Below are positions 203 to 13,551 of a DNA stretch of 64,000 nt, piece after piece. Position 1 is the first letter of the stretch, and the number at the start of each line of letters is the position of its first letter. This DNA comes from Puniceicoccaceae bacterium (lineage in GTDB: Bacteria; Verrucomicrobiota; Verrucomicrobiia; Opitutales; Oceanipulchritudinaceae): assembly GCA_040830765.1 (NCBI GenBank), contig JBFOMH010000003.1, positions 96,001-160,000 of the forward strand, written 5' to 3'. Below the pieces are notes generated by a model, which was not told the DNA's origin, made no database searches, and saw nothing but the letters and a program-made list of their open reading frames with translations. Both the position numbers and the translations under genes were made by a program.

Positions 203-1751
203 TCGGGGATTCCTCAGTGCTTGCGGGTGAAAGGGTTCCATCCGGCATGGGCTTCCTCAACTGGTCGGCCCAGTCGGTCCGCTCCTCCATGGAGGTCCGG
301 ACCGATTCCGGAATCAACTGGTCGACCGGCATGTCCAGCCAGCCTCCTCCAATGGACTTGTAAAGACTGATCACCGCGCTGATGTGGCTGCTGTCATTGA
401 GCAACTCCCGTTCCGCCTGGGCGGCGACCGCGCGCTGGGCGTCGATAACCCGCTGAAAGTCCGCGAGTCCCTCCCGGTAGCGGGAATTGGCCAATTCCAG
501 AGAGCGACGGGCAGCGGCGGTGGAGGCCTTTTGCGGTTCCTTCTGTTCACGGGTCTTGACGACGCTGATGGCGGCATTGTCAATCTCCTGGGCAGCCAGC
601 AGGACGGCATTTTGAAATGAAACGATTGCCTGCTGCAGGCGGGCATCCTCAATGCGGATATTGTTCCGGATGAGTCCCCCATCAAAAATGTTCCACTGGA
701 TCGCCGGACCGATGCCCAAGGTAACCGTGCTGGCGCTCCCTGCCATTGAGTTGTCGGACCATCCAAGGCTGCCAAGAAGCGAAACCGACGGATAGAGGTC
801 CGTGCCAGCCAGGCCAACCTTCGCCGTCTGGGCAGCAACCAGCCAAACAGAGGCGCGTACATCCGGCCGGCGCAGGAGGTAATTGAGGGGGACATCCTGC
901 AGGGCCACCGGGTCCATCTCCGGGAGCAGGACGGTCTCCTCGTCGAGTTCGGGGAGTTGGCTGGGTGCCCGTCCGAGAAGGACGCAAAGGGCATTGCGCA
1001 ACTGGACCTTGCTGATTTCCAGGCCGGGAAGGGTCGAAAGAGTGGACATGTACTGCGTCTTGGCCTGCTGCAGGTCGAGCTCCGACTGCTCCCCACCCTC
1101 GAATAGCTTGCGGGTAATTTCAAAACTGCGGGCCTGGATGCTCGCGTTGCTCTCAGCGATGGCAATGCGCAACAACGTTGTCCGATAGGCAAAGTATAGA
1201 TCCGCAACCTGGGCGGCGAGGAGTACCTGGGCATTCTGCTGGTTGGCAATGGATGCCATGAATGCCGCGTCGGCGGCCTCCACTCCCCGTTGGTACTTTC
1301 CCCAGAAATCCAGTTCCCAGCCTGCATTCAAGCCAGCCTGGGCGCTGACAAAATCGGTATCCGGAGCACCCGAACGGAGGGAATTAACATAGGTAATGGC
1401 TCCCGTGGCCTGCCGGACTTGTGGACTGCGTGCGGAATCGGCAAGGCCCAGGGAGGCCCGGCTCTCGAGGATCCGCAAGCCAGCCAGCTGCAGGGTCGGA
1501 CTCTCCCTTCTCGCCAGCTCAATCAGTTCCTCCAAAACGGGATCATTGAACACTCTCCACCAGAATTGGAGATCGATGCTCTCCCCGCCCGCCGGACGGC
1601 CAAACTGGCCGTAAAGGTCACCCTCCCATGCTTGCAGGCCCGCAATATCCGGCTCCTGAAAATCCGGCCCAACGACCGTGCATCCGGCAAGGCCCAACAC
1701 GGCGAGGACAAGGGCAGCGACAATCCGCCTGATTGGTTTGGAGAAGGCCAT
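195..1751 (-). CDS. Efflux outer-membrane factor lipoprotein (NodT/TolC family)
   Basis: Lipobox LAGC, WWRVFNDP, WELDFWG, LLRRPDVR, LYKSIGGGW. Confidence 0.92.
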   Translation of the reverse strand: MAFSKPIRRIVAALVLAVLGLAGCTVVGPDFQEPDIAGLQAWEGDLYGQFGRPAGGESIDLQFWWRVFNDPVLEELIELARRESPTLQLAGLRILESRASLGLADSARSPQVRQATGAITYVNSLRSGAPDTDFVSAQAGLNAGWELDFWGKYQRGVEAADAAFMASIANQQNAQVLLAAQVADLYFAYRTTLLRIAIAESNASIQARSFEITRKLFEGGEQSELDLQQAKTQYMSTLSTLPGLEISKVQLRNALCVLLGRAPSQLPELDEETVLLPEMDPVALQDVPLNYLLRRPDVRASVWLVAAQTAKVGLAGTDLYPSVSLLGSLGWSDNSMAGSASTVTLGIGPAIQWNIFDGGLIRNNIRIEDARLQQAIVSFQNAVLLAAQEIDNAAISVVKTREQKEPQKASTAAARRSLELANSRYREGLADFQRVIDAQRAVAAQAERELLNDSSHISAVISLYKSIGGGWLDMPVDQLIPESVRTSMEERTDWADQLRKPMPDGTLSPASTEESPNE

Positions 1752-3288: not shown

Positions 3289-5115
3289 ATGAACAGGGTC
3301 CGACTGGTCAGCATCTGGCTGGTGGTGCTTGTCGGCACGGCCTATGCCCTGACCGGCGACATTCTGGAACAACCCGCTATTCCGGCCAACTTCCGGGAAC
3401 AGGCGGAGGAGGCTCTTCAGGATCGCTTCTTCCTTCTGGGAACATGGGAATCCGTGCCCAGAACTCCGGACGGTGGGCTCAACTGGGAACACCGAGGGGA
3501 GCGAGGGGACAAGGAACGGGCATGGATGCTCAACCGGCATGAATTCATTCTCTATCTGGCCCTGGCCTGGCAGGAATCAGGCGATGAACGCTACCGTGAC
3601 AAGGGGAATGCACTGCTCACCGACTGGATCCAAGCCAACCCCTACCCCAACCGCCTCACCTTCTCCCCGTCATGGCGGGCCCTTGAGGTGGCCCGGCGAA
3701 TCAACAACGCCTGGCTCCATGTGGCGGCAATACCCGGGTTCCTCGATCCGGAAACGCACTCGCTGATGCTCTCATCGTTGCCTGACCATGCCGACAGCCT
3801 CATGGAGCATGCTTCCTTCTGGGGCGGCAATCACCTGATCACCGAAAAGCTGGCCCTCCTCACCCTTGCCGTGACCTTTCCGGATCTAGAAGACGCCGGC
3901 CAATGGCAGGAACATGCCATCGAGGTCCTGACGGAGCAGTTCATGGAGCAGACCTATCCGGATGGCAGCTACAAGGAACTGAGTAATCATTACCAGCGCG
4001 TTGTTCTCTTCAACGCACGACAGTTCCTAAAGCTGCTCGCGGAGGTTGATCCAGAATTCCGCCAGCGGGAGGTGTACCATCGCATCGAAAAGATGTGGGA
4101 CTTTTTTGCCGGGGTCACCAAACCGGATGGTTATGGCCCCTTGAGCAACGCCTCTGACCGGGAGTTGAATGCCCTCCACCTTGAGGAGGTGTGGAACTTC
4201 CACGATCGGCCGGACTGGCTGGCCATTGCCACCCAAGGGGCCCGTGGGACCATCCCTGAGGGCTCCCCGTCACGCCACTTTCCCTGGGCCGGCCAGGTCA
4301 TCCTGCGCAGCAACTGGGGACCGCGTGCAGACTGGATCTACTTCGATGCCGGTCCCTATGGAACGGCTCACCAGCACATCGACCGCTTCCATGTCAGTGC
4401 GTCCATCAAGGGTCGGCAGGTGCTGACCGACGGCGGCCGCTACACCTACCAGCCAGGGATGTGGCGGGACTATTTCAAGGGCCCGGCTTCCCATAATCTC
4501 ATCCTCCTCGATGGCGAACCAGCCAGACAGGAGACGCGGGAAGTCCCGGAGCCGCTGCCGGTCACTTTTCAGGAAACGGACATAGCTTCTTTCACAGGAG
4601 CCCGCACTCAATTTTCTGATGAGGGGGCCTTCCCCAACTTGCAGGCACCGGCCACCTGGACCCGTTCCATTCTTTATGACCAGCGAGGGTTCGCCCTGAT
4701 CTTGGATCACCTGGTGACCTTCCGCAAACATCAGCTCACCGCCAACTGGCATTTCCATCCGGAAATTACCAATACAGAAGCTCCTCGCTACCTGCGACTG
4801 GTCCATCCGGTGGAAGGGCTTGAGTCAGTGCAGCAAAGAGGCAGCGAGTCTCCTCCGCTGGGCAGTTTTCACAGTACCGACTACAACAGCAGGGAACCAG
4901 CCGTCCTGCTCCGTTTCAGCGGCAAAGTGGATCGCCCCTCCACCTTGGTCTGGTGCCTGCAGGATCCTGAGTCACCCGTAGTGACTATTCAACTACCAGA
5001 TGAGACAGAGGGTCCGGTCGTCAGGCTGGAGATCCTGCTCGACAGACAACCGGCAGCTGAGGCTGTCATCCGGCTATATCCGGAACCGGAACTGTTGGAA
5101 TACACGGCATTCTGA
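3289..5115 (+). CDS. Heparinase II/III-family polysaccharide lyase-like protein
   Basis: Signal peptide; LNRH, WRALEVARR, NH, DG..KELS.HY, H.H.D, DGGRYTY, SHN motifs. Confidence 0.82.
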   Translation: MNRVRLVSIWLVVLVGTAYALTGDILEQPAIPANFREQAEEALQDRFFLLGTWESVPRTPDGGLNWEHRGERGDKERAWMLNRHEFILYLALAWQESGDERYRDKGNALLTDWIQANPYPNRLTFSPSWRALEVARRINNAWLHVAAIPGFLDPETHSLMLSSLPDHADSLMEHASFWGGNHLITEKLALLTLAVTFPDLEDAGQWQEHAIEVLTEQFMEQTYPDGSYKELSNHYQRVVLFNARQFLKLLAEVDPEFRQREVYHRIEKMWDFFAGVTKPDGYGPLSNASDRELNALHLEEVWNFHDRPDWLAIATQGARGTIPEGSPSRHFPWAGQVILRSNWGPRADWIYFDAGPYGTAHQHIDRFHVSASIKGRQVLTDGGRYTYQPGMWRDYFKGPASHNLILLDGEPARQETREVPEPLPVTFQETDIASFTGARTQFSDEGAFPNLQAPATWTRSILYDQRGFALILDHLVTFRKHQLTANWHFHPEITNTEAPRYLRLVHPVEGLESVQQRGSESPPLGSFHSTDYNSREPAVLLRFSGKVDRPSTLVWCLQDPESPVVTIQLPDETEGPVVRLEILLDRQPAAEAVIRLYPEPELLEYTAF

Positions 5116-5192
5116 ATTACCCGGAAGGTTAAAGTTCTTATTGACCCCGGAGGCGCGCTCATCCATGCCCTAATCCTTTTACCGGAATAATC

Positions 5193-6299
5193 ATGCAGGC
5201 AGGAATCGTCGGACTACCCAACGTGGGCAAAAGCACCCTCTTCAACGCGGTCACCCGCACCCGCAAGGCGGAGGCGGCCAACTACCCGTTTTGCACCATC
5301 GAACCGAATGTCGGTATCGTCCAGGTGCCGGACAGTCGTCTGGAGCCACTGGCCAAAATCGCCAAGACGGAGACGATCATCCCGGCGGCGATTGAGTTTG
5401 TCGACATTGCTGGCCTGGTTGCAGGCGCCTCCGAGGGCGAAGGCCTGGGGAACAAGTTTCTGGCCAACATCCGCGAGGTCGATGCCATCATCCAGGTTGT
5501 CCGCTGCTTCGAGGACGAGGACATCATCCACAACATGGGCAGCGTCGACCCGGTGCGGGACATCGAGGTCATCACCACCGAGCTGGTGCTGGCGGACCTG
5601 CAGTCCGTGGATAATCAAATTGAGCGCCAGTCCCGCAAGGCCAAGGGGCAGGACAAGGAAGCTGCGGCTAATGTTGTCCTGCTGGAAAAGGTCCGCGTTC
5701 ACCTCAATGAAGGCAAGCCGGTCAACACCATGGAAGTGGCTGAGGAGGAGCGCCCACGGCTGAAGCAGTTTTTTCTCCTCACTACCAAACCAGTCATTTT
5801 CGCCTGCAACGTGCGGGAAGACGATTTAGCGGACCCGTCAGCCAATCCGTTCGTCAAGGCGGTGGAGGACTATGTCAAGGTGCACCACGACGCCGCCTCC
5901 TGCGTCATCTGTTCCAAGCTGGAAGAGGAACTGAGCGAGATGTCCCAGGAGGAAGCGGACGAATTCTTGAAGGAGATGGGGGTCGAGGACTCCGGGGTGA
6001 GCCAGCTCATCCACGCCACCTACGACCTCCTCGGCCTGGCCAGTTTCCTCACCGCGGGGGAGAAGGAAGTCCGCGCCTGGACCTTCCACAAGGGCATGAA
6101 GGCACCGGAGTGCGCCGGGGTCATCCATACCGATTTCCAGGACGGCTTTATCAAGGCGGAAGTAGTCGCCTATGACGACCTTCTGGCCGCCGGCTCCAAG
6201 GCCCACGCCCGTGAGGCCGGCAAGCTCCGCATCGAGGGCAAGGAATACGTCTTCAAGGACGGGGACGTCGTCGAATTCCGCTTCAACAAGACCAGCTAA
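5193..6299 (+). CDS. ychF: Redox-regulated ribosome-binding ATPase YchF
   Basis: [50 protein letters not shown]. Confidence 0.98.
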
Positions 6300-7312
6300 A
6301 GATTCAATTTCCGGTGCACGGCATCGGTGAATTCCATGTAGCGGACACCATCGGCAAAGTTGGTCAGGCGCACGGGCGTACCATTGCGGATGCTGTCGAT
6401 GAAGTCTTCTTCCACCCGCCAGCCGCGACGCTCCTCATCGGGAATCTCAACGGGCTGGCAATTGTCCCCATTTCGGCAGAAAAGGACCTCGTTAGCCTCG
6501 ATCTCCACCCGGATTGTCCCATTGGAACCCACCAGTTTGACAGCATTGGTCCCCGGTCCCGGTTCGATCCCGGAAAAATGGTAGTTGAGGGATGCCCCGC
6601 CACTGAAGCGGCCATAGATATGGAGGCTGTCCGGTAAATCGACGTCCACCGTCTCCCCGCTTTCCCAATGCTTCCGTTGGCGGGTGAAGATTTCCCCGGC
6701 GACGCGCTCGACTTCACAGTCCTCGGTTATCCAACGCTGCACCGCCTCGTGGTAAATCCCGAGGGTCAGCATGTTGATGCCGCTGTATCGGGGGTCCTGC
6801 CGCCACGTCAGCGGCGCCTCCGGGTCGACAAAGGCGGATGTGCAATGGTCGATAAAGACCTCCCGCAATTCCCCGACCTCGCCTGAATCCACCAGCCGCC
6901 GGACGGCCGCATCCAGATCGAGGGTAAACGGGGATGGCACGATCTGGGCCACCAGATGCGGGTTTGCCTCCGATGCTTCGAGCATGCAACGGGCCTCCTC
7001 TAGTGAGCTGGCCATGCGGGCCTCCGTCAGGACGTGCTTGCCGGCGTCGAGCGCGGCAAGGGTCATTTCCGCATGCATGTAGGGCCACGTCCCAATGCAG
7101 ACCGCATCCACAGCGGGATCCGCGATCACGGCCCGCCAGTCAGGAGCAACGCGACCGACGCCAAAAGCGTCCGCCACGGCCCAGGAACTGGCCTCGCTGC
7201 GGTTGGCCACTGAAACCAGCTCCACGCCGTCAATCGCCGCAAAGCCCGGCAAGTGCCGCAGGCGGGTGTTGGCGCCTGCCCCGATGAATCCGATGCCAAT
7301 CCGTTTCTGCAT
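6296..7312 (-). CDS. Gfo/Idh/MocA family oxidoreductase
   Basis: IGFIGAG Rossmann motif, DAVCIGTWPYMH, AGKHVLTE. Confidence 0.9.
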   Translation of the reverse strand: MQKRIGIGFIGAGANTRLRHLPGFAAIDGVELVSVANRSEASSWAVADAFGVGRVAPDWRAVIADPAVDAVCIGTWPYMHAEMTLAALDAGKHVLTEARMASSLEEARCMLEASEANPHLVAQIVPSPFTLDLDAAVRRLVDSGEVGELREVFIDHCTSAFVDPEAPLTWRQDPRYSGINMLTLGIYHEAVQRWITEDCEVERVAGEIFTRQRKHWESGETVDVDLPDSLHIYGRFSGGASLNYHFSGIEPGPGTNAVKLVGSNGTIRVEIEANEVLFCRNGDNCQPVEIPDEERRGWRVEEDFIDSIRNGTPVRLTNFADGVRYMEFTDAVHRKLNL

Positions 7313-7412
7313 CCGGACAGCATCCCCCTTATAGGGGTGGATGACAAGTGTGAGTTGTTCCCATGATTGATTTGACAAGCGACCCCGCAGGACCACCTTA
7401 AATCACCTTCCC

Positions 7413-7967
7413 ATGATTGAGGACCTGGAATCCATTATCGTCACCGAGCAGGAAATTCGCGAACGCGTTGAGGTGCTGGGGAACGAAATCTCCGAGGCTT
7501 ATGCCGATGTCGATGAGCTGACCATCATCGCCGTCATCAATGGGGCTGTCCTGTTCACGGCCGACCTTATCCGGCATATCAGCATCCCCATCCGGATAGA
7601 CTGCATGCGCGTCTCCAGTTACCGCAATGACACCAGTCCGGTCCAGGAACCCGAGATCATCGACATGCTGCGCCTCGATCTCGAGGACGCCCATGTCCTT
7701 ATCATCGACGATATCCTCGATACCGGCCACACCTGCGCCCGGGTCATCAAGGAAATCAAGAAACTCAAGCCGGCCTCCGTCCGCTTCGGGGCTCTCCTCG
7801 AAAAGGAAGGCCGTCGTGAGACCAAGGTGGGGGCCGACTTCGTCGGATTCCAGATCCCGGATGAATTTGTTGTCGGGTATGGGCTCGATTTCGCCGAGCA
7901 ATACCGCCAGCTCCCCTGCATCGGCGTCCTCAAGCCGGAATTGCAGAACCCGCCGACCTATATCTGA
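7413..7967 (+). CDS. hpt: Hypoxanthine phosphoribosyltransferase
   Basis: VLIIDDILDTGHT PRPP loop, VSSY, FVVGYGLD. Confidence 0.95.
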   Translation: MIEDLESIIVTEQEIRERVEVLGNEISEAYADVDELTIIAVINGAVLFTADLIRHISIPIRIDCMRVSSYRNDTSPVQEPEIIDMLRLDLEDAHVLIIDDILDTGHTCARVIKEIKKLKPASVRFGALLEKEGRRETKVGADFVGFQIPDEFVVGYGLDFAEQYRQLPCIGVLKPELQNPPTYI

Positions 7968-7983
7968 GGCCGCCGGGCTTGAT

Positions 7984-8238
7984 TCAGTAATGATATCTCA
8001 GTTGGGCGATAAAGATTGAGTCCGTTTCAACCTTGTAGACCAGCCGATGCTCGGCATTGATCCGCCGGGACCAGTATCCCGATGGCCCATGCCTCAATGG
8101 TTCCGGCTTCCCGATCCCCTGATAGGGGTCACGCTCAATGGCTTTCAGGAGCTTGTTGACTTTGACGAGCGTTTTCCGGTCATTTCGTTGCCAGTAAAGA
8201 TAATCTTCCCACGCATTGTCGGAGAATATCTTCTTCAT
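7984..8238 (-). CDS. yoeB: Txe/YoeB family toxin
   Basis: AWEDYLYWQ, GIGKPEPL, WSRRINAEHRLVY, C-terminal RYHY. Confidence 0.95.
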   Translation of the reverse strand: MKKIFSDNAWEDYLYWQRNDRKTLVKVNKLLKAIERDPYQGIGKPEPLRHGPSGYWSRRINAEHRLVYKVETDSIFIAQLRYHY

Positions 8239-8489
8239 TCTTCAACCAATTCCCTTTCCTGTCCCTTGCCGCGTTCCAGCTGCTCGATCGATTCCAGCAG
8301 GCGCTTCGCGTTTTTTGGACTTCTCAGCAAGTAGGTGGTCTCTTCCATTGCTTCATAGTCCTCCAGGGATATCATCACCACTGCCTTCGTCCCCTTCTTG
8401 GTGATAATCACAGGGGCATGATCTTCGCAAACTTGGGTGATCGTTCCGGCCAGGTTTTCCCGCGCCTGGGAATAGGTTATGGATTTCAT
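8235..8489 (-). CDS. yefM: Phd/YefM family antitoxin
   Basis: ITYSQARENL, PVIITKK, SLEDYEAMEETTYLLRSPKNAKRL; 4-nt overlap with yoeB. Confidence 0.95.
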   Translation of the reverse strand: MKSITYSQARENLAGTITQVCEDHAPVIITKKGTKAVVMISLEDYEAMEETTYLLRSPKNAKRLLESIEQLERGKGQERELVEE

Positions 8490-8509
8490 GTTGTACAACA
8501 TCTTGTACA
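8488..8509. promoter_or_regulatory. YefM-YoeB operator: two TGTACA cores
   Basis: 14-bp palindrome ATGTTGTACAACAT (8488-8501) plus a second TGTACA at 8504-8509, cores 12 bp apart, abutting the yefM start. Confidence 0.8.
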
Positions 8510-8547
8510 TTAAGAATGGGGTCAATTGGTTTTCTTCAAACAGCACT

Positions 8548-8877
8548 TTATGGTACCAGGGACTCCAAGGTCTCGGAAATCGTCATTCCGCGCTTCCTGG
8601 CATGACGCTTAAGCCGCTCATGTATCTCTGGTTTCATCCGAAACTGGTAGGACTTGCGCCCGGACGGCTTGCGTCCGCTGCCCTCCCGTCGGCCCCCATG
8701 GGTAGTCGTCTTGCTCCAGTCGATGAAGGCATCGATCTCATCCGATCCTTCATCAAAGAGCTTCTCGAACGCTTGCCATGAAATTGTCCGCTTCCCGTCA
8801 AGGCTAGTGATGCTGTTGCCAGAGGTGGATTTCCGCCGCTCGGCTGCGACGTATTGAGATGATGCGGATTTTTTCAT
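8548..8877 (-). CDS. BrnA-like antitoxin (start uncertain)
   Basis: Downstream of and overlapping brnT; FEKLFDEG..IDAFIDWSK acidic segment, GGRREGSGRKP, RHH-like C-terminus. Confidence 0.65.
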   Translation of the reverse strand: MKKSASSQYVAAERRKSTSGNSITSLDGKRTISWQAFEKLFDEGSDEIDAFIDWSKTTTHGGRREGSGRKPSGRKSYQFRMKPEIHERLKRHARKRGMTISETLESLVP

Positions 8878-9073
8878 GTCGATAGGTTATGATTGCGCTC
8901 CAGAATTTTCCTCGAATTTGACCCACGGTGAGATACCTCTGTTCTTCAGGAAATTCGAGATGGGTCTCTGTTGTTCGCCCTTCCCACAAGCTCCGGGCTT
9001 CTTCAAAGTCAATCCCGTGCTTTTCCCGATTTCGCAGGCTCTTTTCCGGATCATATTCAAACGAATAGTTCAA
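8804..9073 (-). CDS. brnT: BrnT family toxin
   Basis: FEYDPEKSLRNREKHGIDFEEA, EQRY..VG, IRIISIRR. Confidence 0.9.
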   Translation of the reverse strand: MNYSFEYDPEKSLRNREKHGIDFEEARSLWEGRTTETHLEFPEEQRYLTVGQIRGKFWSAIITYRHEKIRIISIRRSRAAEIHLWQQHH

Positions 9074-9279
9074 TTATCAAGAGAGTTCAAGTTGAAATAT
9101 TGTGTGCCTCTTTCAAGTTGCCTGTAAACGTGCCGCACCTCTGACTCACCTCAACCCAGCCTGAGCATCCCCGCCGGAAACGGAAGTCAACTATCCACCC
9201 ATATTCAGGCAGTCCGGGTCCCTTTCTTTTTTCTTGCCATCCCCCGCTGGCGGAATTGCCTTTTCCCTTTCCTTTTGGC

Positions 9280-9355
9280 GGACGGTTAGCTCAGTTGGTA
9301 GAGCAGGAGACTTTTAATCTCTTGGTCCGGGGTTCGAGTCCCCGACCGTCTACCA
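9280..9355 (+). tRNA. tRNA-Lys (anticodon TTT), 76 nt with encoded CCA
   Basis: Acceptor GGACGGT/ACCGTCT, D-arm GCTC-AGTTGGTA-GAGC, anticodon arm GGAGA-CTTTTAA-TCTCT, T-arm CGGGG-TTCGAGT-CCCCG. Confidence 0.97.
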
Positions 9356-9444
9356 ATCGACGCGCTACGCTTGCTCATGGCAGGCCAATTGTTCGGGGTT
9401 CGACCCAACGGATTTACTCGTAAAAGATTAATTCAACCTTGACT

Positions 9445-9468
9445 ATTCGTTATTCGCGAATAACGAAT
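9445..9468. promoter_or_regulatory. Perfect 24-bp palindrome, probable autoregulatory operator
   Basis: ATTCGTTATTCG|CGAATAACGAAT, between TTGACT (9439-9444) and the ATG at 9475. Confidence 0.75.
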
Positions 9469-9474
9469 TATGGT

Positions 9475-9987
9475 ATGGCATTAAAATCACAAGATCTGGT
9501 TGTGGCCCTGAAGTTGTGCCTTGGCGGGTCGGCATTGCCATATGCGGACCTGTCAAGGCAACTGTTGATAAGCGCTTCAGAGGTGCATGCGGCAGTAAAG
9601 CGCTTGGAGGAAGGGGGACTGATTCGGCCCGGCAGCAAGGAGGTCCTGAAACAGCCGCTTCTAAACTTAATCCAATACGGGATAGCGGCTGTATTCCCGG
9701 CCAAGCCGGGAGAGCCGACAAGAGGCATCCCCACGGCGTGGGCTTCGCCCGCTCTTTCAGGAAGCTTCCAGTCATCTGAAAAGGAGCAACCCGTCTGGCC
9801 GGATCCGGAGGGATCGGTGCGTGGGAATGCGGTCGTGCCCCTTCATCCATCCGTGCCAAAGGTGGCCAAGGCAGATTCTCAATTGTATGCGCTTCTGGCG
9901 ATGTTGGATGCTGTTCGCATAGGCCGTGCGAGGGAGCGGAATCTTGCCAATGAGCTGCTAAAAAAGGAGTTGCTGCAAAATGGTTGA
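9475..9987 (+). CDS. HTH-containing putative antitoxin/regulator (AbiEi-like)
   Basis: N-terminal wHTH-like YADLSRQLLISASEVHAAVKRL; C-terminal VFPA.PG..RGIPTA, VWP, DAVRIGRARER; overlaps the downstream nucleotidyltransferase gene. Confidence 0.6.
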   Translation: MALKSQDLVVALKLCLGGSALPYADLSRQLLISASEVHAAVKRLEEGGLIRPGSKEVLKQPLLNLIQYGIAAVFPAKPGEPTRGIPTAWASPALSGSFQSSEKEQPVWPDPEGSVRGNAVVPLHPSVPKVAKADSQLYALLAMLDAVRIGRARERNLANELLKKELLQNG

Positions 9988-10678
9988 AATTCCGCGGGCC
10001 AGCCTGAAGGCAATAGCCAGGCAATTGAATGAACTTGGCGCGTCCTGGGCATTCACTGGTGGCGCAATCATCGGATTACTCATGGACAAACCTGCACTGG
10101 GCTCCACCCGACCAACCGATGATGTGGATGTCATTATTGAAATTCTTGCGCAAAAGGATTACGCGAAGATTGAAGCCCGCCTGCGTGAATTGGGGTTCCA
10201 GAATGACGACCGTGAAGGCGCACCGATGTGCCGCTGGCTTTTCCGAGACCACCTGACTGTGGACATCATGCCGACTGCCGGAAGTTTTCTGGGACTCTCA
10301 ACCAAGCTATTCAGAGAAGCGCTGGAGAGTTCAATGACACACCATCTGGATGATGTGGAAATAAAGGTTGTGTCGCCTCCCTGCTTTCTGGCAATGAAAC
10401 ATGAGGCTTTTCGCGATCGCGGCGAGGGCGAGTATTTTGCGAGCCATGACCTGGAAGACTTCATCACGATATTGGACGGGCGGGAAGCGATCGTGGAGGA
10501 GGTCCAAGCCGCCCAACCAACGGTCTCCGCATACCTTCAATCAGCGGCAAGGAACCTGTTGGAATCAGAAACATTTCTCGAGGCATTGCCTGGACACCTT
10601 ACTCCCGACTCGGCAAGTCAACGGCGGCTCCCACTTATCCTGAAAAAGCTCAAATACCTCGCAGCTGAAAAGGTATAG
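9980..10678 (+). CDS. Nucleotidyltransferase-fold protein (AbiEii/MenT-like putative toxin)
   Basis: FTGGA...RPTDDVD Pol-beta-type motif, VDIMP, LAMKHEAF.DR, SHDLED. Confidence 0.7.
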   Translation: MVEIPRASLKAIARQLNELGASWAFTGGAIIGLLMDKPALGSTRPTDDVDVIIEILAQKDYAKIEARLRELGFQNDDREGAPMCRWLFRDHLTVDIMPTAGSFLGLSTKLFREALESSMTHHLDDVEIKVVSPPCFLAMKHEAFRDRGEGEYFASHDLEDFITILDGREAIVEEVQAAQPTVSAYLQSAARNLLESETFLEALPGHLTPDSASQRRLPLILKKLKYLAAEKV

Positions 10679-10713
10679 ATTGAGTCCTGTTTATTGAGAC
10701 TCATTTAGAGAAA

Positions 10714-10821
10714 TTAATCTCCTGCAAGTCCCGCGAAACGAAGTGAAGCGGGATTGGCCCGGGGTTCGCCGTGACCGGCGTAGCGCACAGTGCGAAGACG
10801 GGAATCCCCGACCGTCTACCA
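10714..10821 (+). repeat. Direct repeat of the tRNA-Lys 3' half (att-like), interrupted by two hairpin inserts
   Basis: TTAATCTC (10714-21 = 9314-21), 32-bp insert, TTGGCCCGGGGTTCG (10754-68 vs 9322-36), 34-bp insert, AATCCCCGACCGTCTACCA (10803-21 vs 9337-55). Confidence 0.85.
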
Positions 10822-10839
10822 TATGAGGCTATAGCTCCC

Positions 10840-11808
10840 CTACCAGGCGTAACTTTCCGGAGCAGTTCCCTTTGGCGTAGGAAAGATGCTCTCTACCTCG
10901 GCCAGTTGCTCGGGAGTGAGCTGAACATCCAATGCGGCGATGGCATCATTCATCTGCTGCATCGTGCGCGGTCCGGATATCATGGCGGTGACATGCGGAT
11001 TATGAAGCACCCAGGACTGCCCGACAATTGCCGGATCGAGTCCGATCTTTGCACAGAAATCCTCATACTGCCGCATGCTGTCGATGAATCCCTTGCTATG
11101 GTTTTTCATCCAGTCGAGGGAACGCCGTCCCTCCTTGGCCTTGGCCAGTTTCCCTGCCAGCATTACCCCTGAAAGGGGGCCGTAGGGAGTGAAGGCAAGA
11201 CCGTAATCCTCGCATGCCGGGATGACTTCGAGCTCCGCGAACCGGCTGGTCAGGTTGTAACTGTGCTGCTCGGAGACCAGCCCAAGGAAGCCCCTCGCCT
11301 TTTGCCGCTCCATCGCCTGCGCGATGCTCCAGCCAGGAAAATTGGAGGATCCCGCATAAAGGATCTTCCCCTCGCGAACCAGCTGCTCCATCGCCTGCAT
11401 CCACTCCTCTGGCTGTACCAGACGGTCGATATGGTGCATGATGTAGAGGTCTATGTAATCCGTTTTGAGGCGCTTCAAACTGGCCTCGCAGGAGCGGCAG
11501 ATATTCAAGGCGTTGACACCTCCAAAACCGATCTGGTCGCCCATGTCACCATTGCACTTGGTGGCAAGGACCAGCTTGCTCCGCTTGCCACTCGCCTGAA
11601 ACCAGTTCCCGACAATCTCCTCGGTCGCTCCGGCACCCAGATGTGCGCCATAGACGTTTGCCGTGTCGAAATGATTGATCCCCTTGTCGAGCGCAGCATC
11701 CATGATGCTGAATGAGTCCAGCTCCGATGTGTAGGGACCGAAATTCATCGTTCCCAGAATGACTTTACTCGATTGAGAACCTGCCCGGCCGAACTTTACG
11801 TATTCCAT
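10840..11808 (-). CDS. Aldo/keto reductase
   Basis: LGTMNFG, GINHFDTANVYG, LATK, SLKRLKTDYIDLY, GSSN. Confidence 0.93.
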   Translation of the reverse strand: MEYVKFGRAGSQSSKVILGTMNFGPYTSELDSFSIMDAALDKGINHFDTANVYGAHLGAGATEEIVGNWFQASGKRSKLVLATKCNGDMGDQIGFGGVNALNICRSCEASLKRLKTDYIDLYIMHHIDRLVQPEEWMQAMEQLVREGKILYAGSSNFPGWSIAQAMERQKARGFLGLVSEQHSYNLTSRFAELEVIPACEDYGLAFTPYGPLSGVMLAGKLAKAKEGRRSLDWMKNHSKGFIDSMRQYEDFCAKIGLDPAIVGQSWVLHNPHVTAMISGPRTMQQMNDAIAALDVQLTPEQLAEVESIFPTPKGTAPESYAW

Positions 11809-11950
11809 ATGGGTTGCCTTGAATTAGGGGAGGAAGAAGTTTCATTGATCGCCAAGGATTGAGCAAGCCCTTCTTTGCCGGTTAGAATCCGCCTCGGACT
11901 GTTGTCTCCAAGGGAATATAATTAGTTTTGCGGTGTGAATCACAAAATCG

Positions 11951-12014
11951 GTCAAGATTCAACATACAACTGTCAATAATTGACATTAGCAAAGTCGAAC
12001 CCTGCTTGTATACT
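11951..12014 (+). promoter_or_regulatory. Locus regulon site 1: tandem 15-bp repeats plus -10 box
   Basis: GTCAAGATTCAACAT (11951-65), GTCAATAATTGACAT (11972-86), TATACT (12009-14). Confidence 0.7.
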
Positions 12015-12042
12015 CAATGAATCATTGATTAATTCAACCAGC

Positions 12043-13551
12043 ATGAAATCCTACCCCACCCCCGTACTTCTCCCGATCGTTACGCTCATTTTACTAACCT
12101 GCAGTCTGGTTCCAAAGTCGCCAGCGGCAGAGTTGTCCGGAAGCAGACCGAATATCATCCTTGTGATGACAGACGACCAGGGCTACGGCGACCTGAGTTG
12201 CCATGGGCATCCATTCTTGAATACCTATAATTTGGATAAGCTCCACAAGCAAAGCACCCGCTTTACTGACTTTCATGCGAGTCCGACCTGTGCACCCACC
12301 CGCGCTGCCCTGATGACGGGTCGTGCACCATTTAAAAACGGCATCACCCATACAATCCTTGAGCGGGAAAGGATGACCTTGAGCACAACAACCATTGCTG
12401 AAGTATTGCGAGATTCCGGTTATACCACGGGTATATTTGGCAAATGGCATCTTGGGGATGATGATCCCTATCAGCCGGAAAACCGGGGATTCGATGAAGT
12501 GTTCATCCACGGAGCAGGTGGGATCGGCCAGAATTATCCTGGAACCCAGGGAGCCGTTCCTGGCACCGGTTATTTCAATCCGATCATCAAGCACAATGGG
12601 GTGTTTGAACAGACAAGTGGATTTTGTACGGATGTTTTCTTTAGGCAGGCACTCGGATGGATCAAGGAAGCCTCGAGTTCCACAAAACCATTTTTCGCCT
12701 ACATACCGACGAATGCTCCTCATGGGCCATTCATAGCTCCGGAAGAATACAAGGTCTTGTATCGGGATTATACCGGCGGAGATGAGCAGCATGCCGCCTT
12801 TTTTGGCATGATCCACAACATTGACGACAACATGGGCTTGCTCATGCGGAAACTGGCGGAATGGGACCTGGAGGACAATACGCTCCTTATTTTCATGACC
12901 GACAATGGAACAGCAAGGGGTGGCAAGTATTTCAATGCGGGAATGAAAGGGAACAAGGGGTCCGTCAACGAGGGGGGTTCCCGTGTACCCCTGTTCATGA
13001 ACTGGAAGGGAAAAATCAAACCGGGAACAGATTTGGAGTGGATGACGCGCCACTATGACCTGTTTCCGACATTGGCAGAACTGGCGGGAGCCATTTTGCC
13101 GGAGGGCCAGGAAATCGACGGCCGGAGTTTGTTGCCGCTACTCCAATATCCCAAGGATTCATGGAAGGATCCTTGGATGGACCGCTTTACTTTTTTCCAC
13201 CTGGGACGCTGGAGTAAAGAAGGTGCAGATGGCCGCTGGGGAGAAGGCAATACCGATCCGGATAAAGCTAAATATAAAAGCTTTGCAGTGCGCAGCGAAA
13301 GATGGCGACTTGTCGGGAAGGGTACACTCTACGATATCATCAAGGATCCTGGTGAAAAAAACAATGTCATCAGTCAACATCCCGAAGTAGCGCGAACCAT
13401 GCTGGAGGCATATGATGAGTGGTGGGATGAAGTACGACCGTTGATGATCAACGAGAATGCCCCGCTGGACACGGGAAAGCCTCTCATTGAGCAATTTAAA
13501 AGGCAGAACAGTACTACCGGAATCCCAGACTGGGTGCCCCCCGATCTGTAA
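12043..13551 (+). CDS. Arylsulfatase (S1 family, Cys-type)
   Basis: Signal peptide; PNIILVMTDDQG, CAPTR, GKWHLG, TDNG, EGGSRVP. Confidence 0.93.
   Translation: MKSYPTPVLLPIVTLILLTCSLVPKSPAAELSGSRPNIILVMTDDQGYGDLSCHGHPFLNTYNLDKLHKQSTRFTDFHASPTCAPTRAALMTGRAPFKNGITHTILERERMTLSTTTIAEVLRDSGYTTGIFGKWHLGDDDPYQPENRGFDEVFIHGAGGIGQNYPGTQGAVPGTGYFNPIIKHNGVFEQTSGFCTDVFFRQALGWIKEASSSTKPFFAYIPTNAPHGPFIAPEEYKVLYRDYTGGDEQHAAFFGMIHNIDDNMGLLMRKLAEWDLEDNTLLIFMTDNGTARGGKYFNAGMKGNKGSVNEGGSRVPLFMNWKGKIKPGTDLEWMTRHYDLFPTLAELAGAILPEGQEIDGRSLLPLLQYPKDSWKDPWMDRFTFFHLGRWSKEGADGRWGEGNTDPDKAKYKSFAVRSERWRLVGKGTLYDIIKDPGEKNNVISQHPEVARTMLEAYDEWWDEVRPLMINENAPLDTGKPLIEQFKRQNSTTGIPDWVPPDL

Follow-up and report, generated by a model that had tools for sequence, protein, structure and literature searches.

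Among the described bacterial repeats, the closest to those reported here are the REP/BIME families (repetitive extragenic palindromes and bacterial interspersed mosaic elements). The GTAG REP super-family is made of GC-rich genomic palindromes of 20-40 bp with covarying stems and variable loops, known as insertions both within genes and in "target palindromes" and abundant in Opitutus terrae (Di Nocera et al., 2013, PMC3733652). REPINs, the doublet form, are non-autonomous hairpins that a Y1 transposase present in one copy, the REP-associated tyrosine transposase or RAYT, is presumed to mobilise in trans (Bertels and Rainey, 2011, PMC3116915). Here we describe a family of hairpins that includes two blocks of 32 and 34 nt, insert 1 and insert 2, interrupting a displaced copy of the 3' part of a tRNA-Lys gene in a marine Puniceicoccaceae bacterium of the same order as O. 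terrae. They lie in a stretch of 64,000 nucleotides, called the window in what follows (assembly GCA_040830765.1, contig JBFOMH010000003.1, positions 96,001 to 160,000 of the forward strand), and coordinates given without a contig refer to it. We lean towards reading both inserts as non-autonomous REP-like hairpins inside a tRNA-Lys remnant, tolerated in neutral places.

The insertion sequences IS1397 and ISKpn1 insert in the loops of REPs. The IS110-family element ISPpu9 also inserts in REPs (PMC12288879), and group IIC-attC introns target the stem-loop DNA of attC sites (PMC3001079). Like all of these, our hairpins show an insertion directed to stem-loop DNA, but the former are kilobase-sized and carry their own enzyme, whereas the hairpins are non-coding and only 30-34 nt long. 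In the tRNA operons of Escherichia coli there are repeats, the TLRs, whose last 18-19 bp are the 3' end of the upstream tRNA (PMC8144298). Similarly, 18 of the 19 nt at 10803-10821 equal the 3' end of tRNA-Lys; the copy, however, is 42 nt long, interrupted by hairpins and placed 1.36 kb off behind two protein genes instead of directly in the operon.

We consider that the closest kind is the REP/BIME family, with two departures. No REPtron, i.e., no RAYT gene flanked by the same repeats, was found among the RAYT/IS200-like loci of the genus, the link by which the kind is defined, and the tag has a different position. Insert 2 and many other members do carry GTAG just before their distal stem, but GTAG (or GNA) stands inside the hairpin, between the stems, and not at its end, while insert 1 has GAAA. 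There are also about 23 copies and not hundreds, located almost exclusively in tRNA trailers and at attC tips, and the doublet arrangement of REPINs is not the rule. No published description of this hairpin family was found in literature searches that had subscription journals outside their coverage; the 13-nt loop of insert 1, searched as a word, gave no match, nor did any paper join a position downstream of tRNA genes with REPs or REPINs. What is new is the grammar of the mini-hairpins, their presence in a T-loop and at attC tips, and the tested absence of RAYT linkage.

Two inserts in a displaced tRNA-Lys copy

The tRNA-Lys gene, the single tRNA gene detected in the window by ARAGORN and Rfam, is followed by an islet of 1.4 kb at whose far end part of the gene is found again. 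The features of both ends are:

9280..9355, plus strand: intact tRNA-Lys(UUU) gene (ARAGORN; Rfam tRNA, 71.4 bits)
9356..9387, plus strand: 32-nt trailer unit of tRNA-Lys, immediately after the CCA, including GCGCTACGC and ending in ...GGCAGGCCA
9389..9409, plus strand: degenerate piece TTGTTCGGGGTTCGACCCAAC at the islet's left edge, similar to tRNA-Lys in its variable loop and T-arm
10714..10721, plus strand: first segment of the tRNA-Lys 3' copy, TTAATCTC, anticodon loop and 3' stem, 8/8 identical
10722..10753, plus strand: insert 1, 32 nt, a 7-nt lead and the hairpin TCCCGC-GAAACGAAGTGAA-GCGGGA, a canonical member of the family
10754..10768, plus strand: second segment, TTGGCCCGGGGTTCG, variable loop, 5' T-stem and first half of the T-loop, 14/15 identical
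10769..10802, plus strand: insert 2, 34 nt, probably a divergent member, with stem CCGGC/GACGG including a G.A mismatch
10803..10821, plus strand: third segment, AATCCCCGACCGTCTACCA, rest of the T-loop, 3' T-stem, acceptor strand and CCA, 18/19 identical

When both inserts are taken out, 10714-10821 is reduced to 42 nt, 40 of which match positions 9314-9355 of the tRNA without any change in length; the mismatches are a T>C in the variable loop and a G>A in the T-loop. The region therefore repeats, at a displaced position, the final 42 nt of tRNA-Lys. An earlier note on this DNA, made from the letters alone, had given the coordinates and insertion points of both inserts and had claimed that their excision restores the tRNA sequence; our reading agrees with it in both respects. 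Insert 1 separates the last base of the anticodon stem's 3' strand from the one before it, and insert 2 is located within the T-loop (TTCG^AGT). As DNA, insert 1 folds into a stem of 6-7 bp with a 13-nt loop (-6.1 kcal/mol, z -2.3, equalled by 5 of 200 shuffles). Insert 2 has a distal stem of 4 bp with a 3-nt loop, flanked by GTA and GAA. A search of 10700-10825 against Rfam gave no match at E values up to 10. Insertions of this sort break att repeats and tRNA remnants, so island finders that look for exact repeats, and tRNA finders, miss them.

A hairpin family in tRNA trailers and attC sites

The alignments (A1, A5 and A6) define a common unit: a GC-rich proximal stem of 6-8 bp, a GNA, a distal stem of 2-4 bp with a 3-nt loop, and a second GNA. 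The proximal stem is either TGCCCYGC/GCRGGGCA or TCCCGC/GCGGGA, at times bulged, and the core is built of GCGNAGC-like motifs phased every 5 nt around a predicted GNA/GNA internal loop. GCGNAGC, or GCGNNAGC, is the "mini-hairpin DNA" motif, in which two G-C pairs close a GNA loop with a sheared G.A pair, and such mini-hairpins are unusually stable DNA structures (PMC13037366). Their physics is in this way tied to a natural repeat family. Insert 2 contains GCGTAGC and insert 1 the variant ACGAAGT, while members in tRNA trailers have overlapping GCGTAGC, GCGCAGC and GCGAAGC. The pattern common to both inserts that the earlier note had pointed out is visible in alignment A1; in A1 and A5, GTAG between the proximal and distal stems is seen in insert 2 and several other members and is replaced by GAAA in insert 1 and its exact copies. 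It should be taken into account that nearest-neighbour folding does not model sheared G.A pairs.

The stems covary. Over 58 hairpins of the genus, 95.7% of the cells were paired compared to 78.8% in shuffles, in an alignment whose fitting to the model favours the structure. The covariation score was 0.512, against at most 0.09 for slid partners, and double-sided changes were detected in five of the eight pairs, the distal pair being G-C in 26 sequences and A-U in 22. Pairs of G and U were rare (7 of 398 cells), so that there is no signal specific to RNA. The family is thus comparable to REPs in consisting of short imperfect palindromes with covarying stems and many copies, although their number is low.

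To search with this structure we used three covariance models, R1, R2 and R3. R2 was trained on 14 hairpins from trailers and attC sites of this genome, with the inserts excluded, and R3 on 13 hairpins all coming from other genomes of the genus. In the window, R2 gave insert 1 as its sole significant match (39 bits, E 4.2e-6). R3 ranked insert 1 first (32.2 bits, E 2.9e-5) and insert 2 second (21.9 bits, E 0.0056), the next match having an E of 0.14. The earlier note would have been wrong if the inserts were single-copy and had no structural relatives; yet a model built from other genomes recovers both. Exact copies of the core of insert 1 are present on contigs C17 (25 nt), C28 (23 nt) and C21 (21 nt), and a variant with a compensatory change in the stem is found on C2, all four just 3' of tRNA genes. 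A 28-mer of insert 1 also occurs three times in the relative G010 (two exact and one at 96%). The closest relative of insert 2 is a hairpin of genome G004 (C33:145886), with which it shares CCGGCGTAGCGCA, GTG and AAGACGG; two 2-nt indels in between lengthen the distal stem. By these sequence comparisons insert 2 is supported as a divergent member of the family, less firmly than insert 1. The earlier note had relied as well on an inverted recurrence of part of insert 2 behind the intact tRNA. GCGCTACGC (9362-9370) is indeed the reverse complement of GCGTAGCGC in insert 2, but this is weak evidence on its own, since the 9-mer merely carries the common GCGNAGC motif (GCGTAGC alone occurs 237 times in the genome).

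The same results bear on whether the two blocks might instead be leftover att arms of nested integrations and not belong to any repeat family. The tRNA-Lys gene is an integration hot spot; its 3' flank was unlike in all of the 11 relatives examined, and a third, degenerate T-arm piece is found at 9389-9409. Besides, both insert junctions coincide with classic places of integrase crossover, the anticodon arm and the T-loop. Recognition of both blocks by a model of hairpins from other genomes, together with the exact copies of insert 1 in three tRNA trailers, largely refutes this explanation, and we regard it as very improbable.

In the 3.99-Mb genome, R1 and R3 together identified 23 distinct members of the family. 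Seventeen are located within 200 nt on the 3' side of the 47 tRNA and transfer-messenger RNA (tmRNA) genes, a space that amounts to 0.24% of the genome; the other six are the two inserts, three copies in attC sites and one weak match elsewhere. A search blind to location, using only a 17-mer form of the grammar, gave 20 matches. Ten of them were in a hairpin context, and nine of these sit 12-122 nt behind a tRNA or the tmRNA, the tenth being insert 1. Relatives were surveyed with R1 (E up to 0.01), a model tuned to the stems of this genus. It detected the family in 8 of 12 other genomes of the genus and, tuned as it is, in none of 24 genomes from 14 other genera of the taxonomic family. Out of 26 copies in relatives, 18 follow a tRNA at a distance of at most 130 nt on its 3' side, another is 526 nt downstream of one, and one is in an attC site; for the remaining six no tRNA was called downstream in their loci, and at least three are inside other palindromes. 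The tie between very small hairpin repeats and tRNA genes that the earlier note proposed is therefore borne out by 17 of 23 copies here and 18 of 26 in relatives. Its idea that the target is tRNA-like DNA needs modification: hairpin-forming DNA is a better description, since the targets comprise trailers made of palindromes, the T-arm, attC tips and other palindromes.

In the relative G004 a broken copy of tRNA-Lys is found in front of the intact gene and behind a promoter-like region (L007, C11 ~1604-1705, minus strand). In place of its anticodon arm the copy has a 16-nt hairpin, CCCCGACTTGTCGGGG; it breaks off in the T-loop, where a trailer-like piece and a T-run are joined to it.

The tRNA trailers consist of palindromes stacked one after another. 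At least six tRNAs are followed first by a 64-nt rod hairpin, with a stem that opens on the CA of the gene's own CCA, and then, at +61, by a family hairpin (for example L091:83-146, L096 and L102-L105). The rod has seven compensatory pairs among six paralogous trailers, and its 13-bp terminal inverted repeats covary. Trailer units are not fitted to the individual tRNA; the first palindrome incorporates only the universal CCA. Rfam searches of eight tRNA trailers gave no family at gathering score other than the tRNAs, and the rod palindrome is not in Rfam. The tmRNA trailer opens with a similar palindrome anchored on the CCA, without distal arm.

These data could mean that the hairpins work as RNA modules in the 3' trailers of tRNAs, acting in 3'-end protection, processing or termination and spread among tRNA loci by recombination, while those at attC sites and in the tRNA remnant would be incidental spill-over. 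The concentration in trailers, the sense orientation of 12 of the 15 trailer copies found by R1, the CCA-anchored rod with its compensatory pairs and the covariation within the family hairpin itself would all agree. But only a subset of the 47 tRNA and tmRNA genes is followed by copies, orthologous tRNA-Lys trailers are wholly different among 11 relatives, and both orientations occur, also at attC tips and in the insides of other palindromes. The scarcity of G-U pairs and the lack of a trailer family at gathering score in Rfam point in the same direction. A role as RNA within tRNA trailers is possible, and leaves the attC and tRNA-remnant copies unexplained; as an account of the whole family we find it rather improbable.

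Evidence of clean insertion comes from the integron. The end of contig C7 contains an array of 16 attC-like units about 200-1350 bp apart (C7:91772-101861, locus L151), and a bona fide integron integrase is coded at the start of contig C18 (C18:819-1748, L109/L152; TIGR02249, 379.6 bits, cut-off 265). Thirteen of the units are 53-65 nt long and the other three 95-96 nt. The long ones carry an extra family hairpin of 33-34 nt, cleanly inserted at the apex (alignment A2), after GAGC in two cases and after GAGCG in one. Since the insertion points differ by 1 nt, independent events are indicated. At two of the junctions there is an ambiguity of 2 nt (GC). One of these inserts agrees over its whole 29-nt core with the hairpin that follows tRNA-Pro on contig C27, and one further attC site bearing a family hairpin was detected in G012. 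Near-identical units are therefore present at unrelated loci, and insertion at attC tips is clean and of unit length; three filled and 13 empty paralogous sites indicate mobility, which the earlier note had proposed. Hairpin repeats as small as these can thus enter structured DNA cleanly, for example a T-loop or an attC tip, and are a concrete origin of the differences in length among attC variable tips. The paralogous array is also a natural assay of filled and empty sites for the mechanism of spread. The attC consensus is of about 62 nt and the array reaches the end of its contig, while the integrase adjoins a tRNA-Gly(GCC); the integron is chromosomal.

How the hairpins may spread

In the explanation we lean towards, the hairpins would be selfish DNA of REP type, non-autonomous, that is copied in folded single-stranded form and placed in the loops of DNA hairpins already present, or next to them. 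A trans-acting activity would move them, the candidates being the IS200/RAYT-type Y1 transposases of the genome, none of which is linked. They would persist only where an extra hairpin is harmless, i.e., in tRNA trailers, in the variable tip of attC sites and in the dead tRNA half, so that both inserts would have arrived after the tRNA half was duplicated and would be without function at this site.

Several observations weigh against this explanation. The first group concerns the enzyme. The genome has four Y1 genes, namely one IS200/IS605 TnpA (C7:64541-64987; 70.9 bits, cut-off 55), one RAYT that exceeds the NCBIfam cut-off (C40:7813-8274; 96.5 bits, cut-off 80) and two RAYT-like genes just under it, and each is flanked by its own, different repeats. 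Among 31 RAYT/IS200-like loci from 13 genomes of the genus (91,958 bases), a single weak R1 match was found, at 22.3 bits and 1.1 kb from the gene. The linked RAYT gene that the earlier note suggested looking for has thus not appeared: of its proposal of REP-like mobile hairpins, the repeat family and the clean insertion stand and the RAYT link falls. No enzyme that moves the hairpins was found, in a search that covered RAYT/IS200-like genes and did not include GIY-YIG nucleases. A second group concerns insert 2. Folded alone it has a z of -0.58, with 45 of 200 shuffles as good. R2 misses it in the window at E values up to 10, for which reason its membership rests on R3 and the one close relative in G004, and with R3 applied genome-wide its E is 0.35. 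Third, the copy number of about 23 is low for a REP family, many trailer copies are beside palindromes and not in their loops, and the bias towards trailers and towards one orientation could reflect a function as RNA and not a preference of targeting. Fourth, the native trailer unit 9356-9387 is still joined to the intact tRNA-Lys and there is the degenerate T-arm piece beyond it; therefore a single crossover is a poor fit, and the history of the islet must be more complex than one att crossover in the anticodon loop.

Sequencing runs add a fifth point. Three runs of the same strain were identical in the parts covered (X2, 9502-11200; X3, 9806-11200; X4, 9445-10435 and 10830-11091), so no insertion polymorphism of the two inserts appeared in these data, which are contigs only and show neither transcription nor the absence of variants. 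A run of another study, X7, comes from a strain 95-97% identical that contains the islet. Its contig passes through insert 1 with a single 1-nt gap and stops exactly at 10768, and because it runs through insert 1, this insert predates the split from the X7 strain; the uncovered part beyond 10768 is given no weight in either direction.

The junctions of insert 2 are a further difficulty, and they lead to a different explanation: template switching, or gene conversion by microhomology, between hairpins at stalled replication or during repair, in which case the "family" would be a set of sequences continually converting one another. Insert 2 shares short homology with the conserved family flanks at both junctions (CG at the left and A-A/G-x-CC at the right), its own flanks (CG...; ...GGGAATCC) resembling the consensus ones (CGACUUG...; ...GGAAGCC), and this fits template switching as well as transposition. 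The GC ambiguity at two attC junctions, the partial tandem re-copies of hairpin 3' halves behind tRNA-Pro (C13) and tRNA-Thr (C28), the failure to find a linked transposase and the unusual stability of GCGNAGC mini-hairpins as DNA (PMC13037366) can be read in the same way. On the other hand, complete hairpins of unit length are found at targets without extended homology (T-loop, attC apex and foot of the anticodon arm), the attC insertion points vary by 1 nt between events, an orientation bias of 12 in 15 is more typical of strand-specific transposition, and for insert 1 we found no donor whose flanks match. We therefore hold template switching to be unlikely, though a serious competitor.

A broader idea is suggested by the distribution of the core. 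The exact 19-nt core of insert 1 was found in 72 stretches, with 77 matches, from many phyla of a species-level genome collection (L017-L088), against about four expected for a random 19-mer by our own estimate. A tRNA is within 200 nt in 10 of the 72. With a constrained fold, 33 of the 77 matches had at least 11 spanning pairs, compared to 56 of 385 shuffled flanks; a test by contiguous flanking pairs was weak (at least three pairs in 15 of 77, and in 5 of 77 of the shifted control). Because the GNA grammar permits only about 128 cores, the spread across phyla probably reflects shared grammar and not shared descent. It might be supposed that gene-less, structure-seeking mini-hairpin DNA of about 30 nt invades the tips of other hairpins by means of a host process and may be pan-bacterial. 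The tips would be tRNA T-arms, trailer palindromes, attC tips and REP loops, and spread would take place by hairpin-primed or template-switch synthesis with no dedicated transposase. This is a speculative proposal, to which we give a low weight.

The taxa with the 19-nt core include Xanthobacteraceae, Hyphomonadaceae/Henriciella, Anaerolineales, Thermoanaerobaculia, Acidobacteriota, Bacteroidales, actinomycetes and others, and in many cases the core forms the tip of a longer palindromic repeat specific to the lineage. Given these results of the flank tests, that the 19-mer is always a hairpin loop is not claimed.

The islet and neighbouring repeats

Between tRNA-Lys and its copy there are only two genes, a winged-helix protein and a toxin of AbiEii type, together a toxin-antitoxin pair of AbiEi/AbiEii type:

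9445..9468: perfect 24-bp palindrome ahead of the first gene of the islet, likely an operator
9475..9987, plus strand: winged-helix (HTH_24/MarR-like) protein, candidate AbiEi-like antitoxin (Pfam)
9980..10678, plus strand: AbiEii-like nucleotidyltransferase toxin (Pfam PF08843, 26.8 bits, cut-off 22.5)

The islet has the 3' part of the tRNA as a direct repeat at its borders, with 40 of 42 nt identical, as expected of attL and attR, while an integrase, the other mark of such islands, is lacking: its content is restricted to the winged-helix and AbiEii-like genes, and none was detected by Pfam among the 12 open reading frames scanned from 3289 to 13551. The suggestion of the earlier note that the hairpins lock the islet in by breaking its att site is moot because the islet has no integrase. 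Its DNA had no match in the 40 relatives searched. An empty site could not be reconstructed from relatives, because synteny downstream of tRNA-Lys is not conserved in the 11 loci compared. The trailer unit 9356-9387 follows tRNA-Lys in G004 too.

The position of the tRNA half behind a toxin gene raises the question of whether it is functional, as a mimic of the tRNA 3' end serving as decoy or RNA antitoxin. Toxins of the AbiEii/MenT type modify tRNA 3' ends. The copy begins 36 nt past the stop codon of the toxin, on the same strand, and terminates in ACCA, and the AGACGG at the 3' end of insert 2 can pair with CCGTCT of the acceptor strand. Homologues of the toxin (47-52% identity) are present in 7 of 150 other genomes of the order. 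Yet a tRNA gene was found within about 1.5 kb in none of the seven loci and a T-arm-like motif in only one, a direct repeat of the adjacent tRNA accounts fully for the piece, and a complementarity of 6 bp is within chance. A toxin decoy, rejected on the seven AbiEii loci without tRNA, thus keeps only a marginal probability.

The tRNA-Lys is situated within a cluster of three toxin-antitoxin systems. Directly upstream of it is a YoeB/YefM pair (7984-8546), followed by BrnT with its ribbon-helix-helix partner (BrnT/BrnA pair, 8548-9073). On the downstream side of the islet region there is an aldo-keto reductase gene (Pfam).

In the X7 strain the left border of the islet consists of a hairpin 3' end (...AGCGAAGCGGGA) fused to TTGGTCCGGGGTTCGACC, which corresponds to the piece at 9389-9409, with a loose end at 9404. 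Another X7 contig joint, 9306>10748, has a tRNA-Lys-like 5' part, then the hairpin TCCCGC-GCCT-GCGGGA and then TTGG...; this hairpin has the stem of insert 1 and a 4-nt loop. As the short side of the joint is of 23 letters, we take it as a lead only and have not used it as evidence.

Other repeats accompany the tRNA genes. The GG-GC spacing of TGGCACAGCCATGCA in trailers is one base below the sigma-54 consensus, and the reading of this motif as a sigma-54 promoter was dropped; it is one arm of a palindrome. A second type of trailer unit, (T/C)TCGACAAGCTCATGGCAGGCCA, is found in four tandem copies behind tRNA-Arg(CCG) (C38:1334-1430); the type is also present behind tRNA-Ser, Val, Leu and Tyr and at 9356-9387 of the window, and related units are present in other genera and families of the order. 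At C17:88158-88215 an end like the 3' end of tRNA-Ser (..CCCTCTCCGCCA) is followed by a type-B trailer unit; ARAGORN calls no tRNA there, and it may be another tRNA remnant. An AT-rich repeat of the type CTTAGCCTTAATCT (e.g., C28 ~67400-67507), seen for instance behind tRNA-Val(CAC), supplies the commonest 14-mers of the genome, with up to 33 copies. Finally, a palindrome tagged with GTAG, CTACAGGCG-TCC-CGCCTGTAG, is present in the genome in about 24 copies.

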